A DNA stretch of 38,384 nt from a virus, in IMG/VR virus record IMGVR_UViG_3300045988_055146, positions 1-38,384 of that record; one strand, written 5' to 3'. The position numbers were made by a program, and so were the translations under genes. How positions within the stretch are numbered: position 1 is the stretch's first letter; each line of letters starts with the position of its first letter. This document shows positions 3,468 to 38,384 of this stretch, in pieces. The notes under the pieces are model-generated. The model searched no databases. It was not told where the DNA came from and saw only the letters and a program-made list of their open reading frames with translations.

Positions 3468-3992
3468 TGCCAGCTTGTCCTCGACCGCATCATCGTCGTC
3501 GAGAAAAGCCTCCGCCATGCAGGCGAAGAAGTCTGCGTTGTCCACGCCGAACTTCTTTGCTGCGTCGCCGTAGTCTGAGTACAGCATGTTCATTGCCGCC
3601 CAGAACTCGTGCGCCTCGCAGTCAAGCTGCTTCTTCTCCAGCAGCTTGTTTGTCTGGTCAATGCTCCAGTGCGGGCCGGTCCTGCCGTCTCCGTTGCGGA
3701 TGTGCATCATCCAGTCCTTCGCGTCTTCCCAGCTCAGGCCGCCATTGCCGTAGCCGCCGTACCCGCGGTCGTAGTCGGCGCGGCTCCCGCCGCCGGTGGT
3801 GCGCATTCCGCCGCGGCGCGCATACGGGTCTCTGTCAAAGCCTATGCGGTTAGGCTCGCGGTATCTCCGCTCCCGCTCATAGCGCGGCGTATAGTCTTCG
3901 TCATAGCGCGGCTGCCTCATGTCGTCGTAGCGTCCGTCGCGTCCGGGCTCCACGCCGCTGTCCGGCAGATATATCATGCGTGATCTCCTCAT
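3438..3992 (-). CDS. Hypothetical protein: Arg/Asp/Tyr/Gly-rich disordered N-half + helical acidic C-terminal domain
   Basis: 184-aa ORF whose ATG overlaps the upstream stop (ATGA at 3989-3992). The N-half is PRYDEDYTPRYERERRYREPNRIGFDRDPYARRGG...DYDRGYGGYGNGG. The C-half is WSIDQTNKLLEKKQLDCEAHEFWAAMNMLYSDY...FLDDDDAVEDKL. Confidence 0.75.
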   Translation of the reverse strand: MRRSRMIYLPDSGVEPGRDGRYDDMRQPRYDEDYTPRYERERRYREPNRIGFDRDPYARRGGMRTTGGGSRADYDRGYGGYGNGGLSWEDAKDWMMHIRNGDGRTGPHWSIDQTNKLLEKKQLDCEAHEFWAAMNMLYSDYGDAAKKFGVDNADFFACMAEAFLDDDDAVEDKLAVYYDCIVEH

Positions 3993-5640: not shown

Positions 5641-5998
5641 CGTCTTTTCTCCTCTGCGTCTTCTTCGCCGTCAGCTCTGCGCGCAGCGCCTCAAGGTCTG
5701 CCAGCGTCGCATACTTCGGCTGCTCCTCCGGCGGAGAATACAAGAAGTCCATCAGCTCCGTCGAGCCCTTGGCCGGATTGAATCTCTTGAAGTAGATCAC
5801 GCCGTGTCCGAAATCCGGCATGAATAATCCGGGGCTCATAAAGTCCACCTGCGCCCCGACTGCTTCTTCTCTGCTGCCTACCGGGCGGACGGAATATCCC
5901 GGCTGCGGTGCCTGAGCCATCGGCCCCGGCATGTTCCCGCTCTGCATCTGATACTGCGGCTGTCCGTAGTACGGCGCGCCGTTCATGTTGTATCCCAT
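5630..5998 (-). CDS. Hypothetical protein: Pro/Gln/Tyr-rich N-terminus + conserved-looking core
   Basis: 122-aa ORF. The N-terminus is GAPYYGQPQYQMQSGNMPGPMAQAPQPGY. The core is VRPVGSREEAVGAQVDFMSPGLFMPDFGHGVIYFKRF. Confidence 0.75.
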   Translation of the reverse strand: MGYNMNGAPYYGQPQYQMQSGNMPGPMAQAPQPGYSVRPVGSREEAVGAQVDFMSPGLFMPDFGHGVIYFKRFNPAKGSTELMDFLYSPPEEQPKYATLADLEALRAELTAKKTQRRKDDAE

Positions 5999-17318: not shown

Positions 17319-17365
17319 TATTATAGCGGGGGAGCGCTCGTTTTCTCTATGGCCCTTTTTGCCCT
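17319..17365 (-). promoter_or_regulatory. 47-bp conserved late-promoter element, copy 1 (upstream of scaffold/capsid)
   Basis: Identical to 31731-31777. The minus strand reads AGGGCAAAAAGGGCCATAGAGAAAACGAGCGCTCCCCCGCTATAATA. TATAAT falls at 17320-17325, and there is no good -35. Confidence 0.6.
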
Positions 17366-17434: not shown

Positions 17435-20400
17435 TCAGCTGTTCCACGGCGCTTCTTCAAGTTTCGCCCAGCTCTTTGTTCCCACGTCGTCGAAGTAGAC
17501 CATTGCTATCTTGTCTTTCTGCTCCGGCGTGAGGCTGAGACTGTCGATGTACGCCCACAGCTTGTCTCTCTTGGAGTTTGCTATGACCTTGCCCTTGCTG
17601 TTGTAGTCCGACTTGAACGTGCTCGCGCTGTGTCCGTTGATTATGTTCCAGTAGTCCAGCTTGCTTATCCCGCTCCCGGTTACATAGCTGTCGTAGCGCT
17701 GCGCCTGCTTGCCGGTGATCGACTTCATCGCCTCTTCGCCGCCTATCCATTCGTAGCGGTACGCCGTGTTCGCTGCTTCCTCCGGCGTGTCTCCGGCGTA
17801 CTTGATGCGGTACTCGTATACTTCCTCCTTGCTTATCCTTCCCGCATTGTATGCGTCGCGTATGCCGGTGAAGCTGTCGCCGCCCGCGTTTATGCCGGTG
17901 TCCTTTTCAAACTTCCACTGCATCACCTTGGCCTTTGCCAGCTCTTTGTTTGCTGCGATCTCCGCCGCCGTCTGCCTGGTCGTGTCGCCGTAGCCGTACT
18001 TTGCCTGAAGCTCCAGCGCCCGGCTTTCCGATATGTTGCCGTTGATAAACTCGTCGTCGATACTGCCGTATGCTATGCCCGTCACCTTTTCGCATGTCCA
18101 CTGCTCCACGGCTACTTCCGCGTCGCGCTCTGCTTTGCCGCCGTACTTTTGCAGCAGCGCCAGCGCCTCCTGCTTGGATATTGTGGCTTTCTCCGTGTCG
18201 CTGCCCTGATACCAGTCGCGTACCTGATTCTTCACGTTATTCTGTATCTTGCTCTTGAACACTCCGTGCTCTGTCAGCTCCTGCATCAGCGCGTCGTAGC
18301 TCTCCGTGTCCCCGGCCTTGACGGCGGCGTACAGATCTTCCAGCTTGTCGTTGCTGCTTCCGTCGCCGTTCCACTCGTTGATTATCCAGAACGCCTGGTC
18401 TGCGTCGTCCGCCACGCCCTGCTTCACAAGCTCCGCCATCGCATCCTCGTCCGTCATAAAGCCGTTGAGATAGCTGCTCTTGATTGCCGCCCTCGTCGTC
18501 GGCCTGTAGCTCTGCACGGTCACGCCGGAGAACGGCGCTACCACCGTGTTGTACAGCGCCACGGCGTCGCGCATTGCGTTGTAGAACGGCAGCCCGCTCA
18601 GCTGTGACACGGCTCTCAGGTTGGCTGCCAGCACTCCGTATGCCGTCAACTGCCCGTTGTAGCTCACGGCCTTCTCGCCGTCCTTTGCTCCCAGCGCCAT
18701 GGACAGCATCTTCATGTCTATGTCCCACGCTTTTTTCAGGTTCGTTATTGCCTGCATGTCCATGCGGCTCACGTCCTCCCCGCGGAAGATAGCGGCAATA
18801 TCCTTTATCACGGGTATCTTGTTGTAGATCAGCAGCTCCTGCATGAGGTTGCCTTCCATCCAGTTTCCTTCTTCGCCGAAGAGCGCCTGCTTCAGCTTCT
18901 GTGCGAAGGTCTCGTAGTCGTCGTCATCTCTCACCGCATCCCACAGCGACGCGGCCAGCACCGTTGCCGCCGAGGATGCGACGAACACCGCCATTGATTT
19001 TACTATCGCGCCCTTGTTCTTCTGCCATGCTATGGCCGCTTTCTGCTTGCTGCTGCCTCCCGCCTTGCGCATGTCCGCCCTGTAGTCTGCGTATGCGTTC
19101 AGCAGTATGTTGTAGCTCAGTGTCGGCTCCGCCATGAATGAGGTCGTGATGTTCGCCAGTATGCCCTGGTTGCGCATGTTGTGGCTCCTCGTGATCGTCG
19201 CGTCCACCACCTGCGTCTTGAGTATGACCTCGCGGAATCTCTCTGCCGTCGCCTTGCACAGCTCGTCTCCGCGCAGCTTCGTCCGGTCTGCCGTCTCCAT
19301 CCTGCACGCGCGCCACAGCGCCGCCCATGTCACGGCGTCGCCCTTCTGCGCGAAGAACATTGCCTTCTCCTTTGCCACGTCTGCAAGGCTCTCGTCGTGC
19401 ATGATCTGGCTGCGCATGCTCCTGCCTATGTCCGTGCTCACGAAGCCCAGCCCCTTCCACGTCGCAATGCCGCTGTACCTGTTCATCTCCTCACTGCTCT
19501 GCTTCCCGCTGCCGGGCTTGAGTGCCGCCGCCAGATACTTCGCGTCTATCTCCTGCGCTGCTCTCACGTATGCCGTCGGCTGCTGTATCGCCACTCGCAG
19601 GTTTGCGCCCACGGCTGCCGCCTTGTAGTTGGATACCATCCGCTTTGTCACGGCATCGCTCCTGCTCGTGCCGCCCTCGTGCTTGCCGTTCAGGTCCTTC
19701 AGCAGCGTCACCACGTACTTTTGCGCTGCCCGTCCGTATGCCGTCTCCACGCTGCGCTGCACCGTGTCCGTGTACACAAGGCCGTTGACGTTCGTCCGCT
19801 CCTTGTAGTTGTACCACTTGAGTGCGTCCAGTATCGGCAGGGTCAGTGCGTTGTACTTTGCCATGTCGCTTGAGTGATCGGTGAATACCTCGAATATGTC
19901 GCTCACCACCAGTGCGTTGTTCGCGTTGATGGTCAGCGCCTTTGTCGCGCTCAGGTTCAGCAGGCGGAACATGTCATTTGCCTTTGCGTCCGGGTCTACC
20001 GCCGGGCGGTCGTTGCTGTCCGTCTGGATAGGGAAGTAGTTCTTCTCGCCGAAGCCGCGGTACCCGAAGCGCTTCATGCTCACCTCGTTGCCCCACTCGC
20101 CGCAGGTGTCCACCATGAAATGCTGAAGCGCGTCCGCAACTTCTCTCTGCCTCTCCGTCAGCATGCCGTCCAGCATCTCAAGGTCTGCGCTGTTCGGCTT
20201 GAAGTGTTCCGTCTGCACTATTTCGTTGAGCCCCTTGCCTATGTTGCCCACGCGCAGGCCACCGCCGTACAGATGCCCTATGGCCTGTGCTCTCTTGCGC
20301 AGGCAGTGCAGGCTCATCAGCTGCGCCGTCGTTATCGTGAACTTGTCTCCGTTCTCAAACTTTACTTCGTGCGTCTCCTCGCGCCATGTCCGCGCCTCCT

Positions 20401-23400
20401 TCGCCGTGTACAGCCCCTCCGTGAAGTCTATGATCTTCTTTGCGTTGAACGCCATCTGTTCCCAGCCCTTTGATATTCCCTCGAAGATAGCCTTGCCGCC
20501 CTCTCCGAAGCGCTGGAACGCATAGAACGGCGTGGTGTTGTCCCAGAAGCCGAACGCCGCAAGCCCTGTCTTTGCCGCCTTGCCCTGCTTGCCGAGCTTG
20601 CCCAGCTCCTCTATGCTGTTCTGCGACGCCTGCTGCACGCTCCTGTACCGGCTGTTCGCCATCAGCTGGTTTGTCTTTTTCACAGACGTGGACAGCACCG
20701 TCAGCAGCGTGTCCAGATGCCGCAGCTCTTCCGCCGTCATGTCGTTCACGGTGAATGTCTTTCCGGTCTCAGCGAACTTGTTTGCTATGCGTATGAAGTC
20801 CTTGACCTGCTCCATCATGTCCGAGGGCATGTCAATGTACACGTCCAGCGCACTCTCCGTGTCCGCACCGCTCATGTACTTCTGCTGGTTCTCAAGCACA
20901 TCCCGCAGCGCTGAGAGCTTCGATGCAAACTTCCTGTCGTTCGCCGTCTCCTCTCCGCCGCGCAGCTGCTGCCTTGACGTGAAGTCTATAGTCGTCAGGA
21001 AGTCGCCCACGGTTTTCTTCAGCACCTCCGGCACATGCTCCTTCGCACTGTTGTTGAGCATCCAGTCCGTCAGCTGTGCCGCCGTCGCGGTCACGCTGTC
21101 CTTGTACTTCTTTATGCCGGCGTTCTCCCTGCGGCGCTGCTGGGCGTTCTGCATCATCTGCTGGTAGTAGTTTCTTGTCTGCTCTACCTTCTCCCACTTG
21201 GCCACCTTCTCCTTTGCCACGGCCTCCTGCTTGCGCGCCACGCCCTCCTGATACACCTGCTGTATGCGTTCCTGCATCCGGCTCTTCATGTCGTTGTAGC
21301 GCGTGCGCTCTTCGGCCACGGCCTTGTTCATCCGGTCTCTCGCACGGTCCGCCGCAGTCTTTGCCGTCTGGCGTATCTCGTCTGAGAGCATCGTGTCCAG
21401 TATGTCCTGCGCCACGGTCTCGCGCATCTCGCCCATGTAGTTTTCAAACGGGTTCCCGCGCACCGGCTGCCATGCCCGTTCCATGTCCGCTATGTGGAAC
21501 AGCATGTCGCTCTGGCTCGTGATGGTTGACGGGAACGCGCCCTCGCCGAACTTCTCCTGCAGCTCCATCCACGCCGTGTCTATCGGCAGTCCGTCCTTGC
21601 CGAAGCGGATGCGCCTGTGCTCCCGCTTCCAGCCCTCCGGCAGGTCCAGCATCTCCCGCTCGTTTATCTTCAGCTTGTTGCTCTTGAGGTAGTCCAGCAG
21701 CTCGCGCCGCGCGTCCTCCATCCCGCTCTCTATCTCTGCCTCCGAGCCGGACAGTATGTGATCCGCTATTGCTGCCGCCCAGTCTTTCAGCTCTGCATAG
21801 CTCAGCTCCTGCCCGTCCGTCTGCACTATGTAGTCGCCCATGCGCTTGAGTTCTTCCTTCACGGTGTCCTCTGCGTCCTTGTTGTGCAGCTCCTCGGTCA
21901 GCCGCCGTGCAAGCTTGTCCGTGTCTGTCTTGCGCACAGTGGCCTCCTTCGTCGTCCGCGTCTGTCCCTTCCAGTATTCCGCGCGCCGCCGAAGCTCTTC
22001 GTTCTGCCTCCGCAGCTCTGCGTAGCTTTCCTGCCTGCCGCGCCGCTCGTCCGCCGTGTCGTCCGCCGCCACGTCGCGCATGGAGTAGCGGAACTGCCCA
22101 AGGTCTGACGGCTGCGCCGGTACGGTGCCATTGTCGAAGTACTCGTTGATGTCGTTGATTATTCTCTTTGAGTACGTGCGCTTTGGGTATTCTATGCTGA
22201 CCACCGTGTCGCCGTTGGCGTTGTCAATGTCCAGTGTCACTTCTCCTCTGAAGCTGGATATGTATCTGTCCAATACGTCGAGCTGCTTTGCATTCGGTTT
22301 TGTGCTGAGGTTTATGCCGCCGCTCTCCGGCGATAGCCTAATATTTCCCGCCTGCATAAACTGCACCATGCCGCCGCTGTAGCTGCCGTCGCCGTAGTCT
22401 CCGTCAAAGGCGTCAGTTATATCCCTGTGGTCTACAGTTCTATAGCCGCCCGGCGCGCCCTCGTGCCGCCCGCTCATGTCCAGCAGTTTGCCATCTCTCA
22501 GCAGATACCCGGCCTCTGCTATCTTGTATGTCGTGCCGAAATACTTTTCTGCCGTCTTGACGTCCGCCGCATCATCCCGCTCGCGCATGGAAAATTTGGT
22601 ATTGCCATTTTCATTGCCTCGTGATATACTAACCATAGAAGTGTCACTGAGGAATTTAGACTTTGGGGTTTTCCCGTATGAGCTAATGATGTCCTCAGTG
22701 GCATTTCTTATTTTTGTTATGTCCTTGAATCTGCGTCCGTTCTTATTGTTTTCAATGTTTATTACTCCGTCGAAGTATTCATCCCCAACTTTGAAGGTCA
22801 CGTCAAAATAAGTAAATCCGCCAGTTGCATTCTTGTGAACATGTCCATCACGTCCGTCAGCGGCAGTCCTGTAATTTCTCCCGGCCTCTATCAGATTGTC
22901 TAGTTCAGGAGCGGCACGCATCTTTGCTTCTTTTACCTGTTCGTCTTTGATAAACCTTGACGGATATGCATATTCATTTGCTGATGCGTTATTAACGAAA
23001 GCTCTATTTGAGCTTCCCACAACTTTGCCAGCAAAGCGGCTCTTTATTATTTCTCTTGCTTTGCTGGTCATCTCTTCCTGTGTCAGCCCATTAAATGCGT
23101 CTTGATCTGTTTTGACATCAACATATTTAGTCCCGTCCTCAAACTCCCTAAGTGAATACTTTGCATTCTTGCTCACGGTCTCATTCCCGCTCGCCGTCTC
23201 CGCGTTCCTCACGGCGCCGGCAAGGGCGCTGTCCCATATCTGCTGCAGCTCGTCCGCATACTTCATCATGGCCTTTGCCTCTGCGTGCCGCGCCTCCACT
23301 CCCGTGAAAGCCTTCCGCAGCTTCTCCGCAAAGTTTGCTATCCATTCCCGGATCTGTTCATACAGGCCCGGGTTTTCTTTTGCCATGATCTCCGGCAGCT

Positions 23401-26320
23401 GCGTGTCCTCCAGCATCATCTCGCAGCTGTCCGCTATCACTTCCTCCACTGCCTCGTCCATGGAAAGCAGTCCGTTCTCGCGCGCTGCCTTCTGCTCTGC
23501 CAGCGCCTCTATGTCTGCGCCGTCCTCTATCAGGTGCCGCGTCACGAAGTCGCGCAGCTGTGCGTAGCCCTCCGCGTTGTTCTCCCGGATGTAGTGCGTC
23601 AGCTCATGCGCCGCCGTCAGCAGCACGGCGGATTCCTCTGAGGTTCTGTTTGCCCCTGCGTTCACGTCAAGGTACATTGTCCCGTTGCGCATGAAGCCGT
23701 TGGCTCCCTTGTACCTTCCGGTCATGTCCGCCTCTGACTGGTAGAATACAACGTCCGTCCCCGTGATCTTTGCCAGCGTCTTTATCACGTCCAGCTCTGT
23801 GCTGCTCACCATGTCCTCGCTCGCAGCTTTGTATCTCTCTCCGCCGTAGTCCACGTCCTGCCCGAAGTACACCTTGCCCTCGCCGCGCTGCCGGGCTGCG
23901 CTGTTCTGTATGCGCGCATCCTTGCTGCTCCTGCCGGTGTTGAATGCTTTCGTGAACTGCTCCTGCGTCAGCACGCTTCCCGCGCCGCCGTTCCTGCGGC
24001 TGCTCTCATATGCCTGCTGCGCTGTCACTGCCGTCTGCTTGCCGTACATGTCCGCCGCCGTGGTGTATGCCCGCACGTAGGTGTCGAAGTCCCCGCCGTT
24101 GTCCTCCGGCCTGTAGCTCAGCAGCATCTCGTCGCCGTATGCGTAGGGGCGCACGCTGTCCAGCATTCTCTGCGTCTCCGCGTCAAAGGTCAGCTTGTCC
24201 TCCGTCACGTCCCGTGTTCTCCCGTCCGGCATCTGCACCCTCGCTGTGAACTTGCCGCCGTCCTGCACTATGGCCTTTATCTGTCCTACCTCGCCCCTGT
24301 ATGCGGCCTCCAGTATTCCGTCCGGCCGGCGTGTGTTCTGCGTGCCCTGCGGTCTCTCCGTGGCCTGCTGTACCTGCTGTGCCGTCTGCTGTACCGGCAA
24401 AGTCCCGTCCTCCAGCACGGCGTCGATGGCCCACACTCTATCTGCCCCATACTTTTCTTCGAGCTCTTTGCGCCGGGCGTCGTATCGTTTCCATTCCGCG
24501 GGATCTTCTTCTATCTGCTGCCCCGTGCGCCCGTCGAATCTTCCCCTTGGGACATCCGGCCTCATGCCTTTAAGCTCCACCATGTCCCTGAAGAACTCAG
24601 GTTCATTTTTTTCTATGTCCCTGTATAGCTCCTGCGGGGTCTGCCGCGCCCATTCCGGTGTCTCTTCCTGCGTGCCCTGCGGGTACTGCGTGCCCTGCGC
24701 CTCCTGTGTCTGCGCCTCCTCCTGTACCGGCGTCCGTCTCCTCGGTGTCTGCGCGCTCTCAATCCCGCTCTCCACGCGGTCAGCCGCCGGACCTCCGTGT
24801 ACCTCGGCCACGCTGTCGCGGTATCTGCGCTGCGCTCTGCCGTTCTCTATGGCATACGCGCCCGCGGTCGCCGCAGTCTGCCCGCCGCCCAGCACGGCAG
24901 ACACCACCGCTGCGCCTATCGCTTCTTCTTTCATGCGGTTCGGGTTTATCATTGCGCCCTCATCTGTGGTGGAGTACAGCGGCACATCCTTGTATACAGA
25001 CTTGAGCCCGCTCTCGCCTATGCCCTGTATGATCTCTTCGCTCATCTCCGAGGGGATGCCCTTTACTATTTGCATCAGTGCGCTGTTGTCTGCACGTTCA
25101 AGGGCGGCGCGGATATTCTTCGGCAGCTTCTGCAAGCCGCCCCACATATCATCCGTGCCGCCTATCTCCGTCGTTGCATTGTATGCCGCATTCAGTATCG
25201 CGTATAGTGACGCCTGCTCTTCGCTTGCCCCATCCTCCAGCGCGTTCTCGTAGCTATCGCCCACAACGCTCATGAACGTAAATCCCCAGTTTGGGTCTGC
25301 TGCCATGTCCGCTGTCGCCTTGAGTATCGGCGTCACTATCTGTGCCGCCCTGCTGCTGTTCGCCAGCGTTGACGCCGCTTGCAGTGCCTCCGTTGTTGCC
25401 TGCGCCGCTGTCGATGTTCCGCCGGACAACAGCGCCATCATCGACATGGGCAGCGAGTTCATCACCATTTCGGTATACTTGCCGACTGTCTGTGCTGCCT
25501 TGCTGTCGCTTGCCGCCCGCGCTGCTTCCTCGTGCTGCAAGTTTATTCTGCGGTTGCCTTCCTCTATGTACTGCCGCAGAAAATTGTCGTCCCCGTATGT
25601 GTAGTTTGGGTTTATCACTCGCCCCGCCTTGGTCACAAGCCCTGCCGCATCGTCGGCAAGGCTGGGGCTTATGTCGTTTACCGTCACTCCGGCAAGCGTC
25701 CGCAGCTCATCTGCGAAGCCTCCGAATGCCCAGTCTAATCCCTTTGCTATCGCGTTGTCCGCGCTTGTCAGTCCCGCTCGTGTGCTCCACTTCACTGTGT
25801 CCCACCAGTCCGTCGGTGTCCACAGCGTGCCGCCCGCTTCCTCCACGCGCTTCTTGTACGCCTCCACAAGCGCGTCTGCCTCGTCCATCTTGTTCTTGGC
25901 CGTGGTATAGTCCGCCGTGCCCCTGCCTTTACCTGCGGCCTCTACGGCGCGGCGTGCCTTGTTGTAGTCGATGTACGCCTGCTTGTACTTCTGGTTGAGG
26001 TCTGCTATCTCTGCTTCTTTCCGCCGCTCCGCGCCGAGGTCTACGCCCCGCCACCCGTGTTCCTCAAGATATGCCTGCCGGGTAGGGCTTACCTTGCCGC
26101 GTCCCTTGTCGTTGTTTACGATGCCGTTCCACTTGTTGCTCTGCTTGTCCAGGTAGTCCTGCCTCGTCCACGACTGCCCGCGGCTGTCCTTGAAAGTCCC
26201 GCTGCTCTGTGTGCTCGTACTGCTTCCTGTATACTCCTCGCCTCTGGCGCGGGCTATGTTCCGCTCACGCTCTTCATGCACACGCGCTATGTTCTGTTCC
26301 CGCTCTTCTCTTGTAGACAT
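17435..26320 (-). CDS. Giant (2,961-aa) multidomain virion / internal head protein with zincin-like HExxH motif; polyvalent-protein-like
   Basis: Single uninterrupted ORF with an AAGGAGG RBS, lying between the portal/Prp genes and the scaffold. The HExxH motif is AAHELTHYI (23594-23608). It has hydrophobic and Ala-rich N-terminal segments, several coiled coils, and a C-terminal set of about 45-aa helical repeats (EALALLQKYGG..., RALELQAKYGYG..., EVYEYRIKYAG...). Confidence 0.9.
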   Translation of the reverse strand: MSTREEREQNIARVHEERERNIARARGEEYTGSSTSTQSSGTFKDSRGQSWTRQDYLDKQSNKWNGIVNNDKGRGKVSPTRQAYLEEHGWRGVDLGAERRKEAEIADLNQKYKQAYIDYNKARRAVEAAGKGRGTADYTTAKNKMDEADALVEAYKKRVEEAGGTLWTPTDWWDTVKWSTRAGLTSADNAIAKGLDWAFGGFADELRTLAGVTVNDISPSLADDAAGLVTKAGRVINPNYTYGDDNFLRQYIEEGNRRINLQHEEAARAASDSKAAQTVGKYTEMVMNSLPMSMMALLSGGTSTAAQATTEALQAASTLANSSRAAQIVTPILKATADMAADPNWGFTFMSVVGDSYENALEDGASEEQASLYAILNAAYNATTEIGGTDDMWGGLQKLPKNIRAALERADNSALMQIVKGIPSEMSEEIIQGIGESGLKSVYKDVPLYSTTDEGAMINPNRMKEEAIGAAVVSAVLGGGQTAATAGAYAIENGRAQRRYRDSVAEVHGGPAADRVESGIESAQTPRRRTPVQEEAQTQEAQGTQYPQGTQEETPEWARQTPQELYRDIEKNEPEFFRDMVELKGMRPDVPRGRFDGRTGQQIEEDPAEWKRYDARRKELEEKYGADRVWAIDAVLEDGTLPVQQTAQQVQQATERPQGTQNTRRPDGILEAAYRGEVGQIKAIVQDGGKFTARVQMPDGRTRDVTEDKLTFDAETQRMLDSVRPYAYGDEMLLSYRPEDNGGDFDTYVRAYTTAADMYGKQTAVTAQQAYESSRRNGGAGSVLTQEQFTKAFNTGRSSKDARIQNSAARQRGEGKVYFGQDVDYGGERYKAASEDMVSSTELDVIKTLAKITGTDVVFYQSEADMTGRYKGANGFMRNGTMYLDVNAGANRTSEESAVLLTAAHELTHYIRENNAEGYAQLRDFVTRHLIEDGADIEALAEQKAARENGLLSMDEAVEEVIADSCEMMLEDTQLPEIMAKENPGLYEQIREWIANFAEKLRKAFTGVEARHAEAKAMMKYADELQQIWDSALAGAVRNAETASGNETVSKNAKYSLREFEDGTKYVDVKTDQDAFNGLTQEEMTSKAREIIKSRFAGKVVGSSNRAFVNNASANEYAYPSRFIKDEQVKEAKMRAAPELDNLIEAGRNYRTAADGRDGHVHKNATGGFTYFDVTFKVGDEYFDGVINIENNKNGRRFKDITKIRNATEDIISSYGKTPKSKFLSDTSMVSISRGNENGNTKFSMRERDDAADVKTAEKYFGTTYKIAEAGYLLRDGKLLDMSGRHEGAPGGYRTVDHRDITDAFDGDYGDGSYSGGMVQFMQAGNIRLSPESGGINLSTKPNAKQLDVLDRYISSFRGEVTLDIDNANGDTVVSIEYPKRTYSKRIINDINEYFDNGTVPAQPSDLGQFRYSMRDVAADDTADERRGRQESYAELRRQNEELRRRAEYWKGQTRTTKEATVRKTDTDKLARRLTEELHNKDAEDTVKEELKRMGDYIVQTDGQELSYAELKDWAAAIADHILSGSEAEIESGMEDARRELLDYLKSNKLKINEREMLDLPEGWKREHRRIRFGKDGLPIDTAWMELQEKFGEGAFPSTITSQSDMLFHIADMERAWQPVRGNPFENYMGEMRETVAQDILDTMLSDEIRQTAKTAADRARDRMNKAVAEERTRYNDMKSRMQERIQQVYQEGVARKQEAVAKEKVAKWEKVEQTRNYYQQMMQNAQQRRRENAGIKKYKDSVTATAAQLTDWMLNNSAKEHVPEVLKKTVGDFLTTIDFTSRQQLRGGEETANDRKFASKLSALRDVLENQQKYMSGADTESALDVYIDMPSDMMEQVKDFIRIANKFAETGKTFTVNDMTAEELRHLDTLLTVLSTSVKKTNQLMANSRYRSVQQASQNSIEELGKLGKQGKAAKTGLAAFGFWDNTTPFYAFQRFGEGGKAIFEGISKGWEQMAFNAKKIIDFTEGLYTAKEARTWREETHEVKFENGDKFTITTAQLMSLHCLRKRAQAIGHLYGGGLRVGNIGKGLNEIVQTEHFKPNSADLEMLDGMLTERQREVADALQHFMVDTCGEWGNEVSMKRFGYRGFGEKNYFPIQTDSNDRPAVDPDAKANDMFRLLNLSATKALTINANNALVVSDIFEVFTDHSSDMAKYNALTLPILDALKWYNYKERTNVNGLVYTDTVQRSVETAYGRAAQKYVVTLLKDLNGKHEGGTSRSDAVTKRMVSNYKAAAVGANLRVAIQQPTAYVRAAQEIDAKYLAAALKPGSGKQSSEEMNRYSGIATWKGLGFVSTDIGRSMRSQIMHDESLADVAKEKAMFFAQKGDAVTWAALWRACRMETADRTKLRGDELCKATAERFREVILKTQVVDATITRSHNMRNQGILANITTSFMAEPTLSYNILLNAYADYRADMRKAGGSSKQKAAIAWQKNKGAIVKSMAVFVASSAATVLAASLWDAVRDDDDYETFAQKLKQALFGEEGNWMEGNLMQELLIYNKIPVIKDIAAIFRGEDVSRMDMQAITNLKKAWDIDMKMLSMALGAKDGEKAVSYNGQLTAYGVLAANLRAVSQLSGLPFYNAMRDAVALYNTVVAPFSGVTVQSYRPTTRAAIKSSYLNGFMTDEDAMAELVKQGVADDADQAFWIINEWNGDGSSNDKLEDLYAAVKAGDTESYDALMQELTEHGVFKSKIQNNVKNQVRDWYQGSDTEKATISKQEALALLQKYGGKAERDAEVAVEQWTCEKVTGIAYGSIDDEFINGNISESRALELQAKYGYGDTTRQTAAEIAANKELAKAKVMQWKFEKDTGINAGGDSFTGIRDAYNAGRISKEEVYEYRIKYAGDTPEEAANTAYRYEWIGGEEAMKSITGKQAQRYDSYVTGSGISKLDYWNIINGHSASTFKSDYNSKGKVIANSKRDKLWAYIDSLSLTPEQKDKIAMVYFDDVGTKSWAKLEEAPWNS

Positions 26321-29660: not shown

Positions 29661-31091
29661 TTATCTCCGCCTGAATTGGTTCAGCGGATCTATCATGTAC
29701 TCCTTCTTCTCTTCCTTGACGGCCGGCACGATCGGGCGCGACATGCACATGTACCTCCACTCGTCGCATACATGGTCCTCCATCTCCGTGTCCAGATCCT
29801 CCGGCCTGTGCTTTGAGTGCTGCATCAGCGGCACCGTGCGGATAAATGCCCGGCAGTTGTCAAACACATACATCCTCGGGTAGCCCTCGCCGTCAAACTG
29901 CAATCGGTAATGGCACTGCATCCACCCCGGTATGCGCGCGTTGTCTCCGGGTGAGAACCACACCCTGTACTTCGCCGCGGTCTCCGCTATGCTCTCGCCC
30001 CGGCTCGTGTCCCATATGCTTGGGTCTGCCACGCCGTCTATGTGCCGGCCCTTGAGCCACGGGTGCTCCCGCTCTATGCGTGCTATCTCTGCGAACTGTT
30101 TTTCCGGCGTCCAGCGTATGCCCTCGTTGGGTGTGTCCGTGCAGCCGTACAGCTCCAGTATCCTGTACAGTATGCCGTCATAGTCCACCGCCCACCACGC
30201 ACAGGAGAACGGCTTGCCGTACCCGAAGTCATAGCTGCGCAGGATATTCCATCCTCGGCTCTCTCCCGCGCTCAGGTCAAACGCCGGTATCACATGCACC
30301 CAGCGCCGCTGTGCTCTCAGCTCGTCCGGCCCCAGCTCGCAGCCCGCCTCAGCCGCCGCCTTGAGATCCGGCTCCGTCCGGAAGTCGTCAAAAAATGCGC
30401 CCTCGAATATATTCCAGTCGCCGTCCAGCCACGCCGCCCTCTGCTTCGCGGGCAGCGCCTCCAGCTGCTTTATGTATTCCGGCTGTGCCCGCATCAGCGC
30501 TTTGTTGTCCCGCACGCCTGCCTGGATGAAACTGTAGTCCCCGCCGTCCTCGCCGTCCTTGTAGTGCCGGTCGATGAACAGCCGCTTGACCCACTCATGC
30601 CCGATGCCTCCCGGGTTGCAGGTGTAGTACACCCGCTTGGGGAAACCGTTGACGCCGCGCACGCAGGCCGTCAGCTTTTTGATCGTGTCCTCGCTCTGGT
30701 GCGTCGCCTCGTCAACAAAGAGTACGTCGACCTCCAAGCCCTGGAATCTGTCTGCGTCCTTCTCCCGCTCGCAGTAGCGGAAGAGTATCCTGCTCCCGTT
30801 GGGGAACTCTATCTCTTTGCGCTGGTCGTTGTAGCGGGCAGCGGCGTCCGCCGTCCCGCAGCCCAGCATCTCCTTGAGCGGCTTTATGTGGTTGGCGTAC
30901 AGCTCCGGGTAGCTCCGGCGTATTATCATCACATTGATGCCCGGGTAGTACCCGCACATCAGCACTGCCTTGACCCGCACGCCCCAGCTCTTGCCGCCGC
31001 CTCGCGCCCCGCCGTAGCATATGTACTTGTGCCGGTCCCGCAGGAAGAGCCACTGCTTGTCGCTTGGCTCCGGTATTGTCAGCGTCCTCAT
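29661..31091 (-). CDS. terL: Terminase large subunit
   Basis: Walker A is CYGGARGGGKSW and Walker B is VDVLFVDEATH. A C-terminal nuclease-type acidic region is present. The ATG overlaps the TerS stop (ATGA at 31088-31091). Confidence 0.95.
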   Translation of the reverse strand: MRTLTIPEPSDKQWLFLRDRHKYICYGGARGGGKSWGVRVKAVLMCGYYPGINVMIIRRSYPELYANHIKPLKEMLGCGTADAAARYNDQRKEIEFPNGSRILFRYCEREKDADRFQGLEVDVLFVDEATHQSEDTIKKLTACVRGVNGFPKRVYYTCNPGGIGHEWVKRLFIDRHYKDGEDGGDYSFIQAGVRDNKALMRAQPEYIKQLEALPAKQRAAWLDGDWNIFEGAFFDDFRTEPDLKAAAEAGCELGPDELRAQRRWVHVIPAFDLSAGESRGWNILRSYDFGYGKPFSCAWWAVDYDGILYRILELYGCTDTPNEGIRWTPEKQFAEIARIEREHPWLKGRHIDGVADPSIWDTSRGESIAETAAKYRVWFSPGDNARIPGWMQCHYRLQFDGEGYPRMYVFDNCRAFIRTVPLMQHSKHRPEDLDTEMEDHVCDEWRYMCMSRPIVPAVKEEKKEYMIDPLNQFRRR

Positions 31092-31483
31092 TGTGCCGCC
31101 TCCTCCGTGCCTTCGGCAAACTCTATGCTCATGCCGCCGTCCCGCTCTCCTGTCTCAATAGCCGTGTATCTTTTGAGCAGCTCCGTCCCTGCCTTGATCC
31201 TGTCCGCCAGCTGTGCGTCCAGGCCAAACTGATCCGCTACCTCTCCCCGCATTACGGATGAGAGGAAGCGCAGCACCTCGTTTGTCTTGGCTATCTCCGC
31301 CTCGTCTATCTCGCGCAGGCGCTCGCGTATATACTCCTCCACATCAGCATCTTTCAGCAGCCTGTAGCCTGTCGTCCGCGCGCTCTTGGCGGAGTACCCG
31401 GCCTCGACCGCCGCCTGCGTCTGGTTGTTGAGGCGGATGTACGCCTCCGCAAATCTCTGTTTTTTAGGTGGCAGCCTCTTCAT
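31088..31483 (-). CDS. terS: Terminase small subunit (Terminase_2 / P27-like)
   Basis: LPPKKQRFAEAYIRLNNQTQAAVEAGYSAKSARTTGYRLLKDADVEEYI is the typical N-terminal HTH of this family. AAGGAGG RBS. Confidence 0.85.
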   Translation of the reverse strand: MKRLPPKKQRFAEAYIRLNNQTQAAVEAGYSAKSARTTGYRLLKDADVEEYIRERLREIDEAEIAKTNEVLRFLSSVMRGEVADQFGLDAQLADRIKAGTELLKRYTAIETGERDGGMSIEFAEGTEEAAQ

Positions 31484-31697
31484 CCTGTGCCTCCTTGTAC
31501 ATCTTTGCCAGCTCCTGCACCACTGCGGCCACGGAATATGTCTTGAGTATCAGCTTGTTGTCCTCCCGTATCTGCCAGCATGTCAGCACCTTGTCGTACT
31601 TGATGCTGTAAAACTGCCGGGAGTTGAGGCTGATGTTCCGCCCGCGCATTATCAGCGCCTGCTGCAAACGCTTTGCCGTGTCTCTCATGCTGCGCAT
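31464..31697 (-). CDS. Hypothetical protein, first gene of the late operon
   Basis: 77-aa ORF with a GGGAGGG RBS. It lies about 30 nt downstream of copy 2 of the 47-bp late element. Confidence 0.65.
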   Translation of the reverse strand: MRSMRDTAKRLQQALIMRGRNISLNSRQFYSIKYDKVLTCWQIREDNKLILKTYSVAAVVQELAKMYKEAQDEEAAT

Positions 31698-31730
31698 GCT
31701 GTGTCCCTCCCTGCTTTTGTCTTATGAGAT

Positions 31731-31777
31731 TATTATAGCGGGGGAGCGCTCGTTTTCTCTATGGCCCTTTTTGCCCT
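31731..31777 (-). promoter_or_regulatory. 47-bp conserved late-promoter element, copy 2 (upstream of the packaging genes)
   Basis: Identical to 17319-17365. TATAAT (minus strand) falls at 31732-31737. Confidence 0.6.
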
Positions 31778-31833
31778 AAATTTCTGAGGCGTCCTGCGCT
31801 CAAAATTTTTTTTGAGAAAATTAAAAAAAGCGC

Positions 31834-31862
31834 TTGACATATCACCCAATGAGTGATAATAT
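31834..31862 (+). promoter_or_regulatory. Near-consensus promoter TTGACA-17-TAATAT with embedded operator TATCAC-N7-GTGATA
   Basis: TTGACA is at 31834-31839 and TAATAT at 31857-31862. A perfect inverted repeat at 31840-31858 fills the spacer. An A-tract / UP-like element and the CTCAAAA-TTTT-TTTTGAG palindrome lie upstream (31800-31833). Confidence 0.65.
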
Positions 31863-31913
31863 AAGGCACGTAAAGACAAAACGGATGGCCGACAGGCAGA
31901 AAGGAAATACAAA

Positions 31914-32207
31914 ATGAACGAGAACAACATGATCAACATCAACGCAGACGATCTCCGCACGGTAGCGGAGGAGACCAAGGACAAGAGGCTCGGGAGATTC
32001 AGCGCCGAGTATTATCAGCTCAGTTATGACCCGCGCACCGGCGAGCTGTGGACAGATTTTCACTGCTCTCTCGGCGGCAATGAGCACACGGTGTACCGTG
32101 ATGAGGAGATCATTCCTTGCGGCAATCTCCGCAGGCGGTACACTGAGGCAGAGCTGCGCGAGCTCGTGGAGCTCTGCGTGGAGGAGCGAGAGGCAGGTGT
32201 GCGTTGA
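31914..32207 (+). CDS. Small acidic hypothetical protein (anti-CRISPR candidate by context)
   Basis: 97-aa ORF, rich in Glu/Asp, with no motif I recognise. It is the first gene after the operator-containing promoter, and its stop overlaps the start of the HTH gene. Confidence 0.7.
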   Translation: MNENNMININADDLRTVAEETKDKRLGRFSAEYYQLSYDPRTGELWTDFHCSLGGNEHTVYRDEEIIPCGNLRRRYTEAELRELVELCVEEREAGVR

Positions 32208-32431
32208 CTATCCGGGAGCTCAGAGCACGGACAGGGCTCACGCAGGCGGCGTTTGCTGCGGCGCTGCACATCCCCAAGCGCAGCATTGAAAACTGGGAGG
32301 GCGGCGGCAGAACGCCGCCTGCCTATCTCGTTGAGCTGATCGAGTACCGGGTCGCGCACGATCCGGACTTGACAGGCTCGCGCAGTCTTGATAAAATGCA
32401 CGTGTCAGGCGGGAAACCGCCTGTGGATTGA
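32204..32431 (+). CDS. Small XRE-type HTH regulator (Aca-like by context)
   Basis: 75 aa. IRELRARTGLTQAAFAAALHIPKRSIENWEGGGRTPPAYLVELI is a canonical XRE HTH. The TTG start overlaps the upstream TGA. The last 9 codons and the stop lie inside the CRISPR-repeat-like element. Confidence 0.8.
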   Translation: MTIRELRARTGLTQAAFAAALHIPKRSIENWEGGGRTPPAYLVELIEYRVAHDPDLTGSRSLDKMHVSGGKPPVD

Positions 32432-32434
32432 AAC
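32404..32434 (+). ncRNA. Solitary type I-C-like CRISPR repeat unit (candidate RNA anti-CRISPR / Cas5d-processing site)
   Basis: The sequence is GTC-AGGCGG-GAAA-CCGCCT-GTGGATTGAAAC. The GTC head, a 6-bp stem with a tetraloop, and the GTGGATTGAAAC tail match the type I-C repeat architecture. There is a single copy, with a terminator 21 nt downstream. Confidence 0.6.
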
Positions 32435-32455
32435 ACAACTACCACATGCGCGCAG

Positions 32456-32488
32456 AAAAAGGGCGGCCAATAACTGGCCGCCCTTTTT
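32456..32488. terminator. Bidirectional rho-independent terminator
   Basis: AAAAA-GGGCGGCCA-ATAAC-TGGCCGCCC-TTTTT is a perfect 9-bp stem. It lies between the convergent plus-strand operon and the end of the early operon. Confidence 0.85.
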
Positions 32489-32497
32489 CTGCGTTCT

Positions 32498-32731
32498 TCA
32501 TTCGATCTCATATTTCCTCATTGTCATCTGGTATACCGGGCAGCGCTCATAAGGCCCCACGCAGTGCCGCCCCATGTAGGAATCCTTTGCCCGCAGTGTG
32601 GAGAACTGCATGCTCAGCTTCATTTTATCCGCAAAGCCCTCGCATACTATGTCGCGCTTGCCTGCCCGCTCGCCCATGAAGAACGGGCAGCGCACGTCGG
32701 CTGCGTTCCACGTCTCCTTGTGGTTGGCCAT
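32498..32731 (-). CDS. Hypothetical Cys-rich small protein
   Basis: 77-aa ORF with an AAGGAGG RBS. Cys pattern is CPFF...IVCEG...HCVGPYERCPVY. Confidence 0.7.
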   Translation of the reverse strand: MANHKETWNAADVRCPFFMGERAGKRDIVCEGFADKMKLSMQFSTLRAKDSYMGRHCVGPYERCPVYQMTMRKYEIE

Positions 32732-32746
32732 ACTCCGCTCGCCTCC

Positions 32747-33055
32747 TTATATGCCGTTGAGCGCGTCGTCAAGGCAGGCGAAATCCGCAGGCGTGAACAT
32801 GCACTCCTGCTTCTCTTCCTCGGTCCTGCGCCATTGCTTTGCCGCCCCGGCCTTGGCCTCGGTCTCCCGCTCCTGCGGTGTTTTCCTGTCGTTCTCCGGG
32901 TCGTAGCTGTACTCTGTCAGCTCTCCCCGGAAGCCGCACAGCCTGCACCCGGCGTAGCCTGCCCTTGCATACTCCGCCGGTACCTCGCTCAGATGGTACA
33001 GCTTGCCCAGCTTTGCCGCGCACCCGGCGCACAGTCTCGTCCGTATCCTGCTCAT
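32747..33055 (-). CDS. Hypothetical zinc-ribbon-like protein
   Basis: The ORF track gives 32747-33298, but the ATG at 33055 overlaps the upstream stop (ATGA). Sequence is MSRIRTRLCAGCAAKLG...GCRLCGF (CxxC...CxxC). Confidence 0.65.
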   Translation of the reverse strand: MSRIRTRLCAGCAAKLGKLYHLSEVPAEYARAGYAGCRLCGFRGELTEYSYDPENDRKTPQERETEAKAGAAKQWRRTEEEKQECMFTPADFACLDDALNGI

Positions 33056-33840
33056 GTGTTCCTCCTTCCTCCGCGCTTCGGCGGACGTGGTATTATGATC
33101 CTCCCGCCCCGCACCTTCGGCCGCACCGGCAGGATGCATCTCACGTATGAGCTTATTGCCCGCCCGCACTCGTCGTCCAGGCGCTCGAAAGCAGTCTGTC
33201 TCGCCGTCGGCAGTACGGCTATGTCCTCCGCGCCGCCGCTTACTTCCTCCGGCTCTGTGTATATGGGCTTGAGCAGGTTGCCCCTGCTCGTGCTCCACTT
33301 GTTCTTTCCGCGCTCAAGGCCGTGTACGTTTTTGACCATGTACACCGCCAGCGCCGTGTGGTCTTCCCGTCCGTCTATCTCCTCCACGGAGATTGTTCCC
33401 CACTTCCACAGCCCGGCCAGCATGTCAAGGCTGCATGCCTCGATCACAAAGTGGTGGTGCAGGCGGGCAGGCGCGTCCCGCTCCGGGCTCCAGTTTGCGT
33501 TTACCATCACGTACCTTGGGTTACGTCCATGCTCCCGGCGGAAGGCAGCGCGAAGCACCCGTGTGAACTTGCCTCCGTTCTCCTCGAGGGCGGCATAGTC
33601 TGCGGGCAGGTGCTCGTCATCGTATTTTGCTGTTACCCACAGCCATCCCCGTTCAAGGTTGGCGTTGAGTATCCGCGCTAAAGACTTCACGGCTTCCATC
33701 TCGTTCGCCCTGATCTTCCTTGCCGATGTGTTTCCGGCTATCCTCTGACCGCGCGGCTTCTTCTGTGGAGATCCGGCACGGACATTCATGTATGTCCGTC
33801 TGATCTCCACCACGTTCCCCGATATTATCTTGTACTCCAT
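33052..33840 (-). CDS. HUH-superfamily rolling-circle replication initiator-like protein (Rep)
   Basis: Motif 1-like is GWLWVTAKYD, motif 2 is ARLHHHFVIE (HUH), and motif 3 is ALAVYMVKNV (YxxK). The ORF track start is 33852, but the ATG at 33840 has the better GAGGAA RBS. Confidence 0.55.
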   Translation of the reverse strand: MEYKIISGNVVEIRRTYMNVRAGSPQKKPRGQRIAGNTSARKIRANEMEAVKSLARILNANLERGWLWVTAKYDDEHLPADYAALEENGGKFTRVLRAAFRREHGRNPRYVMVNANWSPERDAPARLHHHFVIEACSLDMLAGLWKWGTISVEEIDGREDHTALAVYMVKNVHGLERGKNKWSTSRGNLLKPIYTEPEEVSGGAEDIAVLPTARQTAFERLDDECGRAISSYVRCILPVRPKVRGGRIIIPRPPKRGGRRNT

Positions 33841-34027
33841 CAGTTTCCTCATTCCTTTTAAAGCCTCGTCCTAATCTTAGCCTCTTAAAAGTCTCGCAAG
33901 AAACGCACGCGCCCGCGCGTTTCTTTTCCTGCCTCGCGCCTGCGCGCGAATATAATAAGTAGAAAGGTACAGGGGTCTCGAAGCCGCCCGCGCCGTGCGT
34001 GGGCGCTTTCCAGATCCTTGCGCCGAA

Positions 34028-34479: not shown

Positions 34480-35025
34480 TTATTTTTGTTGATCCTCCAG
34501 CTTCATGAAGCATCCCCAAAATGTTTTTGAGTTCTTTCCGCTGTGGTGCCCGAATAGTGGCCTCATTCCAATTGCTCGCCATACAGCTGCTGCGGGGATT
34601 TGCCCTTCCGACCATTTGAAAATGAGTACTCCATCTGGTTTGAGCACTCGCATACATTCTTGGAAACCGTCTTTGAGCATCAGCGGCCATGTTTTATCTA
34701 GCTTGCCATATTTTTCGACCAGCCACGAAGTTTGCCCCGCATCTATGAGGTGTGGAGGATCAAATATAACCAACGTAAAAGTGTTGCTTCTGAACGGTAG
34801 GCGCGTGAAGTCGCATTGTATATCAGGTGCAACCTCGCATATGCGAGTGCTTTTTCCCTTGTTGGAACTCCATTCTCTTTCCGTTCGGCTTTGCCGAATA
34901 TCGCAATACACGGCGGCAGGGTGATGTTTGTCGAACCAGATTGATTTGCTCCCGCATGTAGCATCTAGTATTTTTTTGTTCTGCGGCAGCTCGACCTCTG
35001 TGCTTATCCACGTTGTTTCCGTCAT
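34480..35025 (-). CDS. Orphan SAM-dependent DNA methyltransferase (DPPH motif; N6-A or N4-C class)
   Basis: Motif I-like is ILDATCGS and motif IV is VIFDPPH. 181 aa with an AAGGAGG RBS. The gene is visibly more A+T-rich than its neighbours. Confidence 0.75.
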   Translation of the reverse strand: MTETTWISTEVELPQNKKILDATCGSKSIWFDKHHPAAVYCDIRQSRTEREWSSNKGKSTRICEVAPDIQCDFTRLPFRSNTFTLVIFDPPHLIDAGQTSWLVEKYGKLDKTWPLMLKDGFQECMRVLKPDGVLIFKWSEGQIPAAAVWRAIGMRPLFGHHSGKNSKTFWGCFMKLEDQQK

Positions 35026-38060: not shown

Positions 38061-38366
38061 ATGACTACTCTTGCTGTCTTCCTCTCGCTCATCCTCGGTC
38101 TGCTTCTTTGGTCCGTGCTCGCATTGCTTGGTCTGCCGTATCTGTTGATTGCCTGTGCTGACCTTGCGCTTCTGTACTGGCTTCCGCGTCTCGTATGCTG
38201 CCGGCGCGGCAATCCCGCTCTCGCTCAGCAAACAGTCGGTGTCCTCATTATCGTCTGCTGCGGTATCGTTATGTTTGCCGACCGCGCAGCATTCCCTAAC
38301 TTGTGGTATGTTCTGTCCGGTATCGCGCTCGTCGTTCTCTCGTTTATAAAAGTTAAGAAAGGATAA
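38061..38366 (+). CDS. Small polytopic membrane protein, function unknown
   Basis: 101-aa ORF with an AAAGGA RBS. It has three hydrophobic segments (LAVFLSLILGLLLWSVLALLGLPYLLIA, VGVLIIVCCGIVMF, WYVLSGIALVVLSFI). It is the first gene of the plus-strand lysogeny module. Confidence 0.7.
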   Translation: MTTLAVFLSLILGLLLWSVLALLGLPYLLIACADLALLYWLPRLVCCRRGNPALAQQTVGVLIIVCCGIVMFADRAAFPNLWYVLSGIALVVLSFIKVKKG

Positions 38367-38384
38367 TCAGCTATGAAAGAAAAA
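38330..38384 (+). repeat. Terminal overlap, copy 2 (identical to 1-55)
   Basis: Same 55-mer as nt 1-55. It spans the end of ORF 38061-38366 and the start of the ORF that begins at nt 44. Confidence 0.95.

Follow-up and report, generated by a model that had tools for sequence, protein, structure and literature searches.

A compact cassette on the plus strand

This analysis concerns a short cassette in a stretch of viral DNA of 38,384 nucleotides (nt), here called the window, which comprises positions 1 to 38,384 of IMG/VR virus record IMGVR_UViG_3300045988_055146 and derives from a podovirus-like phage of the human gut. An initial annotation, made from the letters and a list of open reading frames (ORFs), had proposed that positions 31834-32490 constitute an anti-CRISPR locus (CRISPR, short palindromic repeats that are clustered and regularly interspaced) in which an anti-CRISPR gene (acr) is followed by the gene for an anti-CRISPR-associated regulator (aca). 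The features that it described are all present in the sequence and the ORF list where it had placed them. They belong to a discrete cassette of about 700 bp (31797-32492) that occurs in at least two phage backbones, encodes a small acidic protein and a helix-turn-helix (HTH) regulator, ends with a solitary CRISPR-repeat-like element and a terminator, and is a candidate type I-C anti-CRISPR locus.

The left edge of the cassette is an A/T-rich element (31797..31833, plus strand) with a small hairpin, CTCAAAA-TTTTTTTTGAG. The element is conserved in all cassette copies, and blastn homology to the related loci L005, L007 and L012 begins at 31797. Directly downstream lies the main promoter, P1 (31834..31862, plus strand), with TTGACA at 31834-31839, a 17-nt spacer, TAATAT at 31857-31862 and an extended -10 TG, all conserved in both backbones; transcripts from P1 would be expected to begin near 31869. 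It had been described as near-consensus, and an independent scan of 31400-32900 agrees, with a match to 10 of the 12 consensus positions; the same scan finds two promoter-like sites on the plus strand (P1 and the internal promoter P2) where 0.4 are expected from shuffled sequence. The inverted repeat TATCAC-N7-GTGATA that had been noted in the P1 spacer is indeed there, as part of a larger 19-bp palindrome with one mismatch, TATCACCC-AAT-GAGTGATA (31840..31858). This putative operator fills the spacer, overlaps the -10 hexamer and has a single occurrence in the 38-kb genome, where chance would give 0.04.

A conserved 5' leader (31863..31913, plus strand) with the ribosome-binding site AAAGGAAA at 31900-31907 leads into ORF97 (31914..32207, plus strand), the gene for a small acidic protein and candidate anti-defence (Acr) effector. 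The annotation of ORF97 as acidic and devoid of recognised motifs stands, with an isoelectric point (pI) of 4.74, 21 acidic and 13 basic residues and no Pfam match, and is refined in one respect: the conserved core, of 92 amino acids (aa), begins only at Met6 (31929), and codons 1-5 (MNENN) are left over from the leader and first-gene start that the cassettes share. We call this core, and the protein family to which it belongs, ORF92. The HTH ORF (75 aa, 32204-32431, plus strand) starts at a TTG that overlaps the TGA stop of ORF97 by 4 nt, a start that is supported by a 71%-identical homologue with ATG at the same residue. Codons 1-52 (32204..32359) encode an XRE-type domain that matches HTH_31 at E 4.5e-8 and HTH_3 at E 4e-6 and is presumed to be an Aca-like autorepressor. 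The domain begins at residue 1. Codons 53-75 (32360..32431) are its sole extension, and this tail is an open frame that runs across DNA and RNA signals.

The first of these signals is the internal promoter P2 (32369..32397, plus strand; TTGACA at 32369-32374, N17, TAAAAT at 32392-32397, with TG), which matches 11 of 12 consensus positions. Transcription from P2 is predicted to start at about 32404, and its -10 hexamer ends 5 nt before a solitary type I-C CRISPR-repeat-like element (32402..32434, plus strand), GTGTCAGGCGGGAAACCGCCTG followed by the 11-mer TGGATTGAAAC, in which a 7-bp stem (CAGGCGG/CCGCCTG) is closed by a GAAA loop and precedes the 11-mer. Within the segment after the repeat (32435..32455, plus strand), the 15 nt AACTACCACATGCGC (32437-32451) are invariant in all cassette variants; the segment has no second copy, complement or target in the genome. 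The cassette closes with a bidirectional intrinsic terminator (32456..32488), and homology to the second backbone ends at 32488-32492. The perfect 9-bp stem previously assigned to this terminator (32461-32469 / 32475-32483, flanked by A5 and T5) is confirmed and extends to 20 pairs. According to the ORF list all genes neighbouring the cassette lie on the minus strand, and purine and GC skew switch to the plus strand exactly across the unit.

The cassette is mobile and carries variable cargo

The cassette was compared with about 40 related loci, designated by L numbers. Close relatives of the HTH (85-93% identity) are found on contigs of two phage backbones, one being the source phage's own type (L002, L015-18) and the other (L005-L014) having the cassette after a lysin, a holin and a GerE-like gene and in the same direction as these. 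By blastn, similarity between the second backbone and the source genome is confined to three stretches: 31797-31921, which is promoter and leader, 31915/23-32488/92, which runs from ORF to terminator, and a lysin gene 25 kb away. Because homology is limited to these stretches, the cassette can be delimited as spanning from just upstream of P1 to the terminator. Its DNA has no match among GenBank phages.

In every cassette the HTH directly follows the 92-aa core (M[I/L]NINADDL...) with an identical overlap of 4 nt, and different small genes are inserted between P1 and this fixed pair in the sister cassettes. The cargo genes encode proteins of 75 aa, 128 or 216 aa, 71 aa and 135 aa, so that most sizes fall between 71 and 135 aa with one variant of 216 aa. 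Four of the five have a pI of 4.0-5.0, none has a Pfam, PHROG or PDB match, and one has an IMG/VR homologue among other small accessory genes. The cassette of the source phage holds no extra cargo gene. The 92-aa gene is not itself variable cargo; it is the fixed neighbour of the HTH, and the variation concerns the genes upstream of these two. We also considered whether the cassette is a phage lysis-lysogeny or late-gene switch and rejected this, because the operator is unique and the site and orientation of the cassette differ between the backbones.

Coding constraint is distributed unevenly along the unit. Among five cassette variants the ratio of nonsynonymous to synonymous polymorphism (pN/pS) is 0.06 for ORF97, which denotes strong purifying selection, and 0.19 for HTH codons 1-52, while the tail has a pN/pS of 1.36 together with reduced synonymous change. 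Homologues of the HTH of 57-65 aa do without the tail altogether. The description of a 75-aa XRE protein holds for its start and its domain, and its last 23 codons are unconstrained as protein. Across the same five variants the -35 hexamer of P2 is invariant and its -10 has one variable site, its 17-nt spacer is 47% variable, the repeat-like element is 21% variable and the terminator is 58% variable. The regulator reading frame would thus be a scaffold for a predicted promoter and a putative RNA gene, which would be a new point of gene organisation.

A predicted RNA element embedded in the regulator gene

The CRISPR-repeat-like stem-loop that had been noticed at the end of the unit is confirmed and has a type I-C-like handle. 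In type I-C systems the repeat hairpin is cleaved by Cas5d at its 3' base, which yields a 5' handle of 11 nt; here the 11-mer TGGATTGAAAC, which has one exact copy in the genome, directly follows the hairpin. In a relaxed scan the 3' 14 nt of the element are identical to the repeats of 17 metagenomic arrays. Array repeats that end in CTGTGGATTGAAAC and have the same layout occur in metagenomes, and one such array (L050) can be assigned to type I-C because it adjoins cas5d, csd1 and cas7. The arrays from the relaxed scan served only to assign the 11-nt handle to type I-C. The exact pattern of the whole element has no match in IMG/VR.

The element stands in the transcribed orientation with its dedicated promoter P2 directly upstream. 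The predicted small RNA, taken as about 96 nt, folds into the repeat hairpin and the terminator with a z-score of -10.5, and the repeat hairpin is 95% paired across six variants. Solitary repeats in phages have been described to act as RNA anti-CRISPRs (Racrs), which as a rule have a promoter just upstream and are clustered with acr genes (PMC10651486). For example, the type I-C RacrIC1 begins 11 nt beyond the end of an acrIC5 homologue, and each of the two is active (PMC10651486). Candidates in that study were selected for a promoter within 250 bp upstream (PMC10651486), and P2 lies within this distance of the present element.

The invariance of the 15 nt after the repeat raises the question of whether the RNA could be the main effector as a guide. 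It would then be cut by Cas5d to give the 11-nt 5' handle and a pseudo-spacer, ACAAAACTACCACATGCGC, and would reprogramme type I-C Cascade to repress cas or toxin promoters, in the manner of Cracr or CreA, or to attack competitors, with ORF92 and the HTH in accessory or regulatory roles. That the flanking loop, discriminator and terminator vary around these constant 15 nt fits this proposal, as does the description of viral Cracr RNAs, type I-C included (10.1101/2024.10.29.618823). Viral Cracr and host CreA-CreR systems resemble the cassette in that a repeat-derived small RNA, in the viral case encoded by the phage, is often found with acr genes and has a conserved post-repeat segment; they differ in that the Cracr pseudo-spacer matches a cas or toxin promoter and is flanked by repeats (10.1101/2024.10.29.618823), whereas the cassette has one repeat only, with none downstream, and no target for the segment was found within the phage genome. 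The strong purifying selection on ORF92 would also be left unexplained. We regard a guide as the main effector as quite improbable, and an RNA that acts as a repeat mimic as the better account of the element.

A second hairpin was found at 3435-3466 on the minus strand, TCTACTATG-ACTG-CATAGTAGA followed by GCATTGAAAC, which has a repeat-type 3' end. Its stem is AT-rich and no promoter is nearby; it extends over the stop codon of ORF 3438-3992, with a terminator after it, and its 3' part alone aligns weakly to CRISPR-DR9. This hairpin may be due to chance.

The ORF92 protein family

ORF97 has nothing usable in Pfam, NCBIfam, PHROGs or PADLOC, its single match being phrog_4837 at E 0.035, and a full-text search of the literature for peptide strings of ORF97 and the HTH returned no match. 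A word-indexed search yielded just four relatives, an exhaustive profile search at least 133 representative clusters (E up to 1e-3) with lengths of 80-110 aa in nearly all cases, and a second profile search 105 family proteins that are almost all unnamed. The median pI of the family is 5.8, and none of 68 members matches Pfam. ORF92 is thus an unannotated family, carried on mobile elements of Clostridia. A tblastn search with one family member gave one weak phage match and no plasmid match.

The settings of the family genes are diverse. Those in phages lie next to the terminase, after an endolysin or between structural genes; those in integrative elements lie beside tyrosine or serine recombinases, and one is in an IS30-flanked island. 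Members also occur in runs of acidic small genes and once near a Lar restriction-alleviation gene, and several have no small DNA-binding neighbour.

An AlphaFold2 model built from a 68-sequence alignment has a predicted local distance difference test score (pLDDT) of 96 and a predicted template modelling score of 0.86, where an earlier run with four sequences gave a pLDDT of 47. The model is an alpha-beta-beta-beta-alpha fold. Foldseek found no match for it in the PDB (best E 0.29, a superoxide dismutase) or in BFVD (best E 0.1), and a search of the ORF92 profile against PDB sequences found nothing. As modelled, ORF92 therefore has no detectable relation to any solved Acr, toxin or regulator and is a new family with a fold that is new relative to solved structures.

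Operator and recognition helix co-vary

If the HTH acts on the palindrome in P1, then changes in one should be matched by changes in the other, and this is what homologous loci exhibit. Position 8 of the operator differs symmetrically among cassette variants (A/T, G/C, C/G), with the dyad kept. The full ORF92-family alignment was too diverse for a locus search and a 10-sequence subset was used instead. Seven independent family loci with a DNA-binding partner have a near-consensus sigma-70 promoter with a palindrome in the 17-nt spacer, and family members without a small DNA-binding partner have no such promoter.

The identical site TCACCG-AAT-CGGTGA pairs with the same recognition helix, IPKR[ST]I.NWE. 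For example, at L025 the promoter TTGACA[AGTCACCGAATCGGTGA]TATAAT accompanies a 155-aa partner with a C-terminal HTH whose helix is IPKRTIGNWE (IPKRSIENWE in the source phage), even though the ORF92 homologue there is just about 33% identical to the source phage protein. A 60-aa HTH homologue at L065 likewise has ATCACCG...CGGTGA just upstream. Other palindromes accompany other helices or ribbon-helix-helix (RHH) partners at distant family loci: CCACGC-AAT-GCGTGG at L019 and CCACGC-ATT-GCGTGG at L021 with the helix IPLRTVEDWA, TAACCC-AAAAA-GGGTTA at L052 with IPIRTLEKWE, and further palindromes at L031 and L001 with RHH partners, the RHH being confirmed for L001. Operator and recognition helix thus co-vary across distant homologous loci, which fits the prediction of an autorepressor; the HTH protein would bind the operator TATCACCCAATGAGTGATA and repress P1.

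Locus L001 belongs to an unrelated siphovirus and has a 70%-identical ORF92 homologue in a lone plus-strand cassette between structural genes. Its partner is a 51-aa RHH protein in place of the HTH, its promoter is TTGATT, N17, TACAAT with a palindrome of its own, and the cassette adjoins a phage tRNA-Gln (5811-5884 on the minus strand and 5940-5975).

The nearest solved relatives of the HTH are Atu1735 (profile E 3e-7) and the HTH domain of HigA-2 (profile 2e-5; single sequence 6e-4), with weak matches to MqsA-type and Xre-antitoxin models and only two weak loci in IMG/VR. HigA-2 is an antitoxin, and the cassette could accordingly be conceived of as a type II toxin-antitoxin operon of the HigBA/MqsRA order, with ORF92 as toxin and the HTH as autorepressing antitoxin. 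The likeness to HigBA-2 and MqsRA is considerable, as the effector gene comes first and the HTH second, stop and start overlap and a palindromic operator lies in the promoter, all of which is typical of such operons. The partner of ORF92 also alternates between HTH and RHH, as in toxin-antitoxin families, and some partners have 80-100-aa N-terminal extensions. In contrast, the ORF92 model matches no RelE, HigB, MqsR or other solved toxin, and both the protein and its family are acidic (pI 4.7 and a median of 5.8), unlike typical toxins. Furthermore, the HTH is a bare 52-aa DNA-binding domain with an unconstrained tail and no neutralising extension, family members that have no small DNA-binding neighbour demonstrate that pairing is not obligatory, and PADLOC gave no match.

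A natural variant bears on the same question. The loci L061-64 (for example L062 2083-2777), which come from at least four samples, have lost HTH helices 2-3, including the recognition helix, through an in-frame deletion of 54 nt, and in place of the P1 operator they have another palindrome, ACTTGGTGTGGT-ATAATTGA-ACCATACCAAGT. ORF97 remains intact in these loci, and it, P2 and the repeat mimic are all retained with differences that are mostly synonymous. If the sole task of a repressor is to restrain the strong promoter of its own operon, repressor and operator can disappear together; an antitoxin could not be dispensed with in this manner, and the variant therefore argues against a toxin-antitoxin operon. 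We consider a toxin paired with an HTH antitoxin, the case that the initial annotation had named as one that would overturn its proposal, to be very unlikely indeed. As far as can be judged from these sequences, the variant supports the interpretation of the cassette as an anti-CRISPR locus.

A protein of 195-210 aa that is rich in Cys and has many CxxC motifs, weakly matching phrog_1271 ('HNH endonuclease'), recurs beside the HTH subfamily with or without an ORF92-family gene (L019 3245-3865, L021 1072-1704, L065 871-1458). Its recurrence suggests a wider gene-neighbourhood network.

The cassette as a candidate anti-CRISPR locus

We interpret the cassette as a horizontally mobile anti-defence unit that is a well-supported candidate and is best read as a type I-C anti-CRISPR locus, because it fits all sequence-level features of published acr and Racr design; we regard the case for this reading as evenly balanced. 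That the locus is anti-CRISPR at least through its RNA appears on the whole probable, and that the 92-aa protein is itself an Acr is put forward more tentatively, as somewhat less likely than the contrary. In acr operons a small HTH protein acts as the repressor at a palindrome in the promoter, and a given Aca may be found with many acr genes (PMC9765179). AcaFinder looks for genes on one strand with intergenic distances below 250 bp, proteins below 200 aa and an HTH protein below 150 aa (PMC9765179); here ORF97 and the HTH lie on the same strand of a phage genome, overlap by 4 nt and encode 97 and 75 aa. The predicted repeat mimic strengthens the CRISPR link of an acr-aca interpretation.

In the mechanism that we propose, P1 would drive an early burst of ORF92, the candidate inhibitor, and in sister phages of further cargo as well. 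A dimer of the HTH would then bind the 19-bp palindrome in the P1 spacer and shut the operon off, according to the logic of Aca proteins. P2, which would be unregulated and is situated inside the dispensable HTH tail, would give constitutive synthesis of an RNA of roughly 85 nt that starts with the repeat mimic and ends at the terminator. By analogy with Racrs this RNA may be bound, and perhaps cut, by Cas5d and Cas7 of a host type I-C system, which would be diverted from real CRISPR RNAs. The extra small acidic orphan genes that sister phages have between P1 and the fixed pair may be comparable to those of multi-acr loci.

The closest parallel in layout is the acrIC5-racrIC1 locus of a Bifidobacterium pseudocatenulatum prophage, in which a small protein gene and a solitary type I-C repeat mimic likewise follow each other in one transcription unit, with the repeat just downstream of a promoter, in a phage of a gut bacterium (Camara-Wilpert et al. 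2023, PMC10651486). The cassette differs in that its protein, known from sequence alone, is unlike anything solved or annotated, in that an HTH gene lies between protein gene and RNA, and in that the RNA has its own near-consensus promoter, both promoter and repeat being embedded in the frame of the HTH tail.

A second parallel is provided by the Aca1- and Aca2-controlled acr operons of Pseudomonas phage JBD30 and Pectobacterium phage ZF40, reportedly described by Stanley et al. and by Birkholz et al. in 2019. These share with the cassette a strong early promoter whose operator is an inverted repeat, small genes on a single strand, an HTH protein of less than 150 aa encoded by the last gene, and one regulator with different upstream genes. 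In contrast, the HTH of the cassette is not detectably related to any solved Aca in a PDB profile search, the gene immediately upstream of its regulator stays the same and is not shuffled, and the partner at homologous loci can be an RHH protein. An acr-aca operon with an adjacent Racr is thus a known kind of system; new are the unannotated family with its novel predicted fold, an HTH that is not among the solved Aca proteins, and the putative RNA gene and promoter embedded in the regulator frame.

Several observations weigh against the type I-C anti-CRISPR interpretation. ORF92 has no similarity to any solved Acr in the PDB profile search or by Foldseek, and it is a conserved partner of the HTH and not a shuffled cargo gene. 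None of the 26 PDB profile hits of the HTH is named Aca, the nearest being HTH domains of HigA-2-type antitoxins. The repeat-like element is 70-78% identical overall to the closest sampled repeats, which come from metagenomic arrays. A strict scan for a CRISPR array with the same stem found none, Rfam CRISPR-DR9 aligns over its full length with 14.9 bits against a threshold of 45 bits, the hairpin has no compensatory changes among six variants, and the element has no match in that part of the published solitary-repeat table that was available. The textbook acr-aca arrangement that had been proposed for the locus is therefore borne out in its architecture, namely the promoter palindrome, the co-variation of operator and helix, the small genes on one strand and the mobility of the cassette. 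Among solved structures the 97-aa protein has no similarity to an Acr and the regulator has no relative named Aca, and the 92-aa gene is fixed.

ORF92-family members also occur in many contexts that have no CRISPR-like element, and their target could therefore be other than CRISPR. The cassette would then be a generic autoregulated 'moron' or anti-defence unit whose ORF92 acts on restriction-modification, abortive infection or a host process, with only the RNA, if anything, being anti-CRISPR. Family genes near Lar, next to integrases or recombinases and in runs of acidic small genes are consistent with this, as is the dissimilarity of ORF92 to Acrs of solved structure. The phage moreover has an orphan DNA methyltransferase, so that restriction evidently is a pressure on it. 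However, ORF92 and the type I-C repeat mimic stay together in all cassettes with this HTH, including those in which the HTH has been destroyed, and the solitary repeats described so far are over-represented beside acr genes (PMC10651486). A non-CRISPR target is on these grounds an unlikely alternative, albeit one that carries real weight.

The anti-CRISPR interpretation can also be extended to a two-layer hijack of type I-C Cascade by RNA and protein. Here the Cas5d-cut mimic would guide Cascade, through the invariant 15 nt, to a target in the host or a rival phage, and the 92-aa protein, from a new fold family dispersed over mobile elements of Clostridia in which each member has a matched repressor and operator of its own, would be a broad modulator of Cas or other immune complexes rather than a single-target Acr. 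We think this improbable and offer it as speculation.

Genomic surroundings of the cassette

The termini of the window (1-55 and 38330-38384) are identical over 55 nt and the record therefore represents a complete circular genome of 38,329 bp. The large terminase of the phage is at most 58% identical to that of uncultured faecal phages, and the genome also encodes a portal, a major head protein, an internal virion protein, an endolysin and a DNA methyltransferase. No cas genes are present among the genome ORFs scanned, and no CRISPR array was found in the genome. To the left of the cassette, all on the minus strand, lie the small terminase (31088-31483; phrog_51), the large terminase and a 77-aa ORF; to the right, also on the minus strand, are a 77-aa ORF (32498-32731) and a replication initiator (33052-33852; phrog_3584, E 8e-42). 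The methyltransferase is an orphan gene of the early region (34480-35025, minus strand; phrog_954, E 4.5e-64) and is likely to be a second counter-defence function, against restriction, in the same genome.

A perfect 47-nt direct repeat is present at 17319-17365 and 31731-31777, and the cassette starts right after the second copy. Read on the minus strand the repeat contains TAGAGA, N18, TATAAT, and it lies upstream of two minus-strand operons, the 77-aa/terminase operon and one that starts at 17242. The repeat is probably a late promoter that is specific to the phage and employed at both places. Almost a quarter of the genome is taken up by one ORF of 2,961 aa (17435-26320, minus strand), which has a 3,011-aa counterpart in the sister phage L002.

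Implications

Type I-C systems are common in human-gut Clostridia, and to our knowledge very few inhibitors are known from the uncultivated phages of these bacteria. If the anti-CRISPR interpretation is correct, then ORF92 would represent a new and structurally novel family of anti-CRISPR or anti-defence proteins, with at least 133 clusters and none like it solved. The cassette would also be the second natural case in which a protein Acr is combined with a type I-C RNA anti-CRISPR, in a layout where the protein operon is repressed and the RNA is constitutive. As the cassette is only 700 bp long, these predictions are cheap to test. Finally, the co-varying pairs of HTH or RHH repressors and their operators would provide a guilt-by-association handle for finding anti-defence genes in the gut virome, as well as a set of orthogonal genetic parts.

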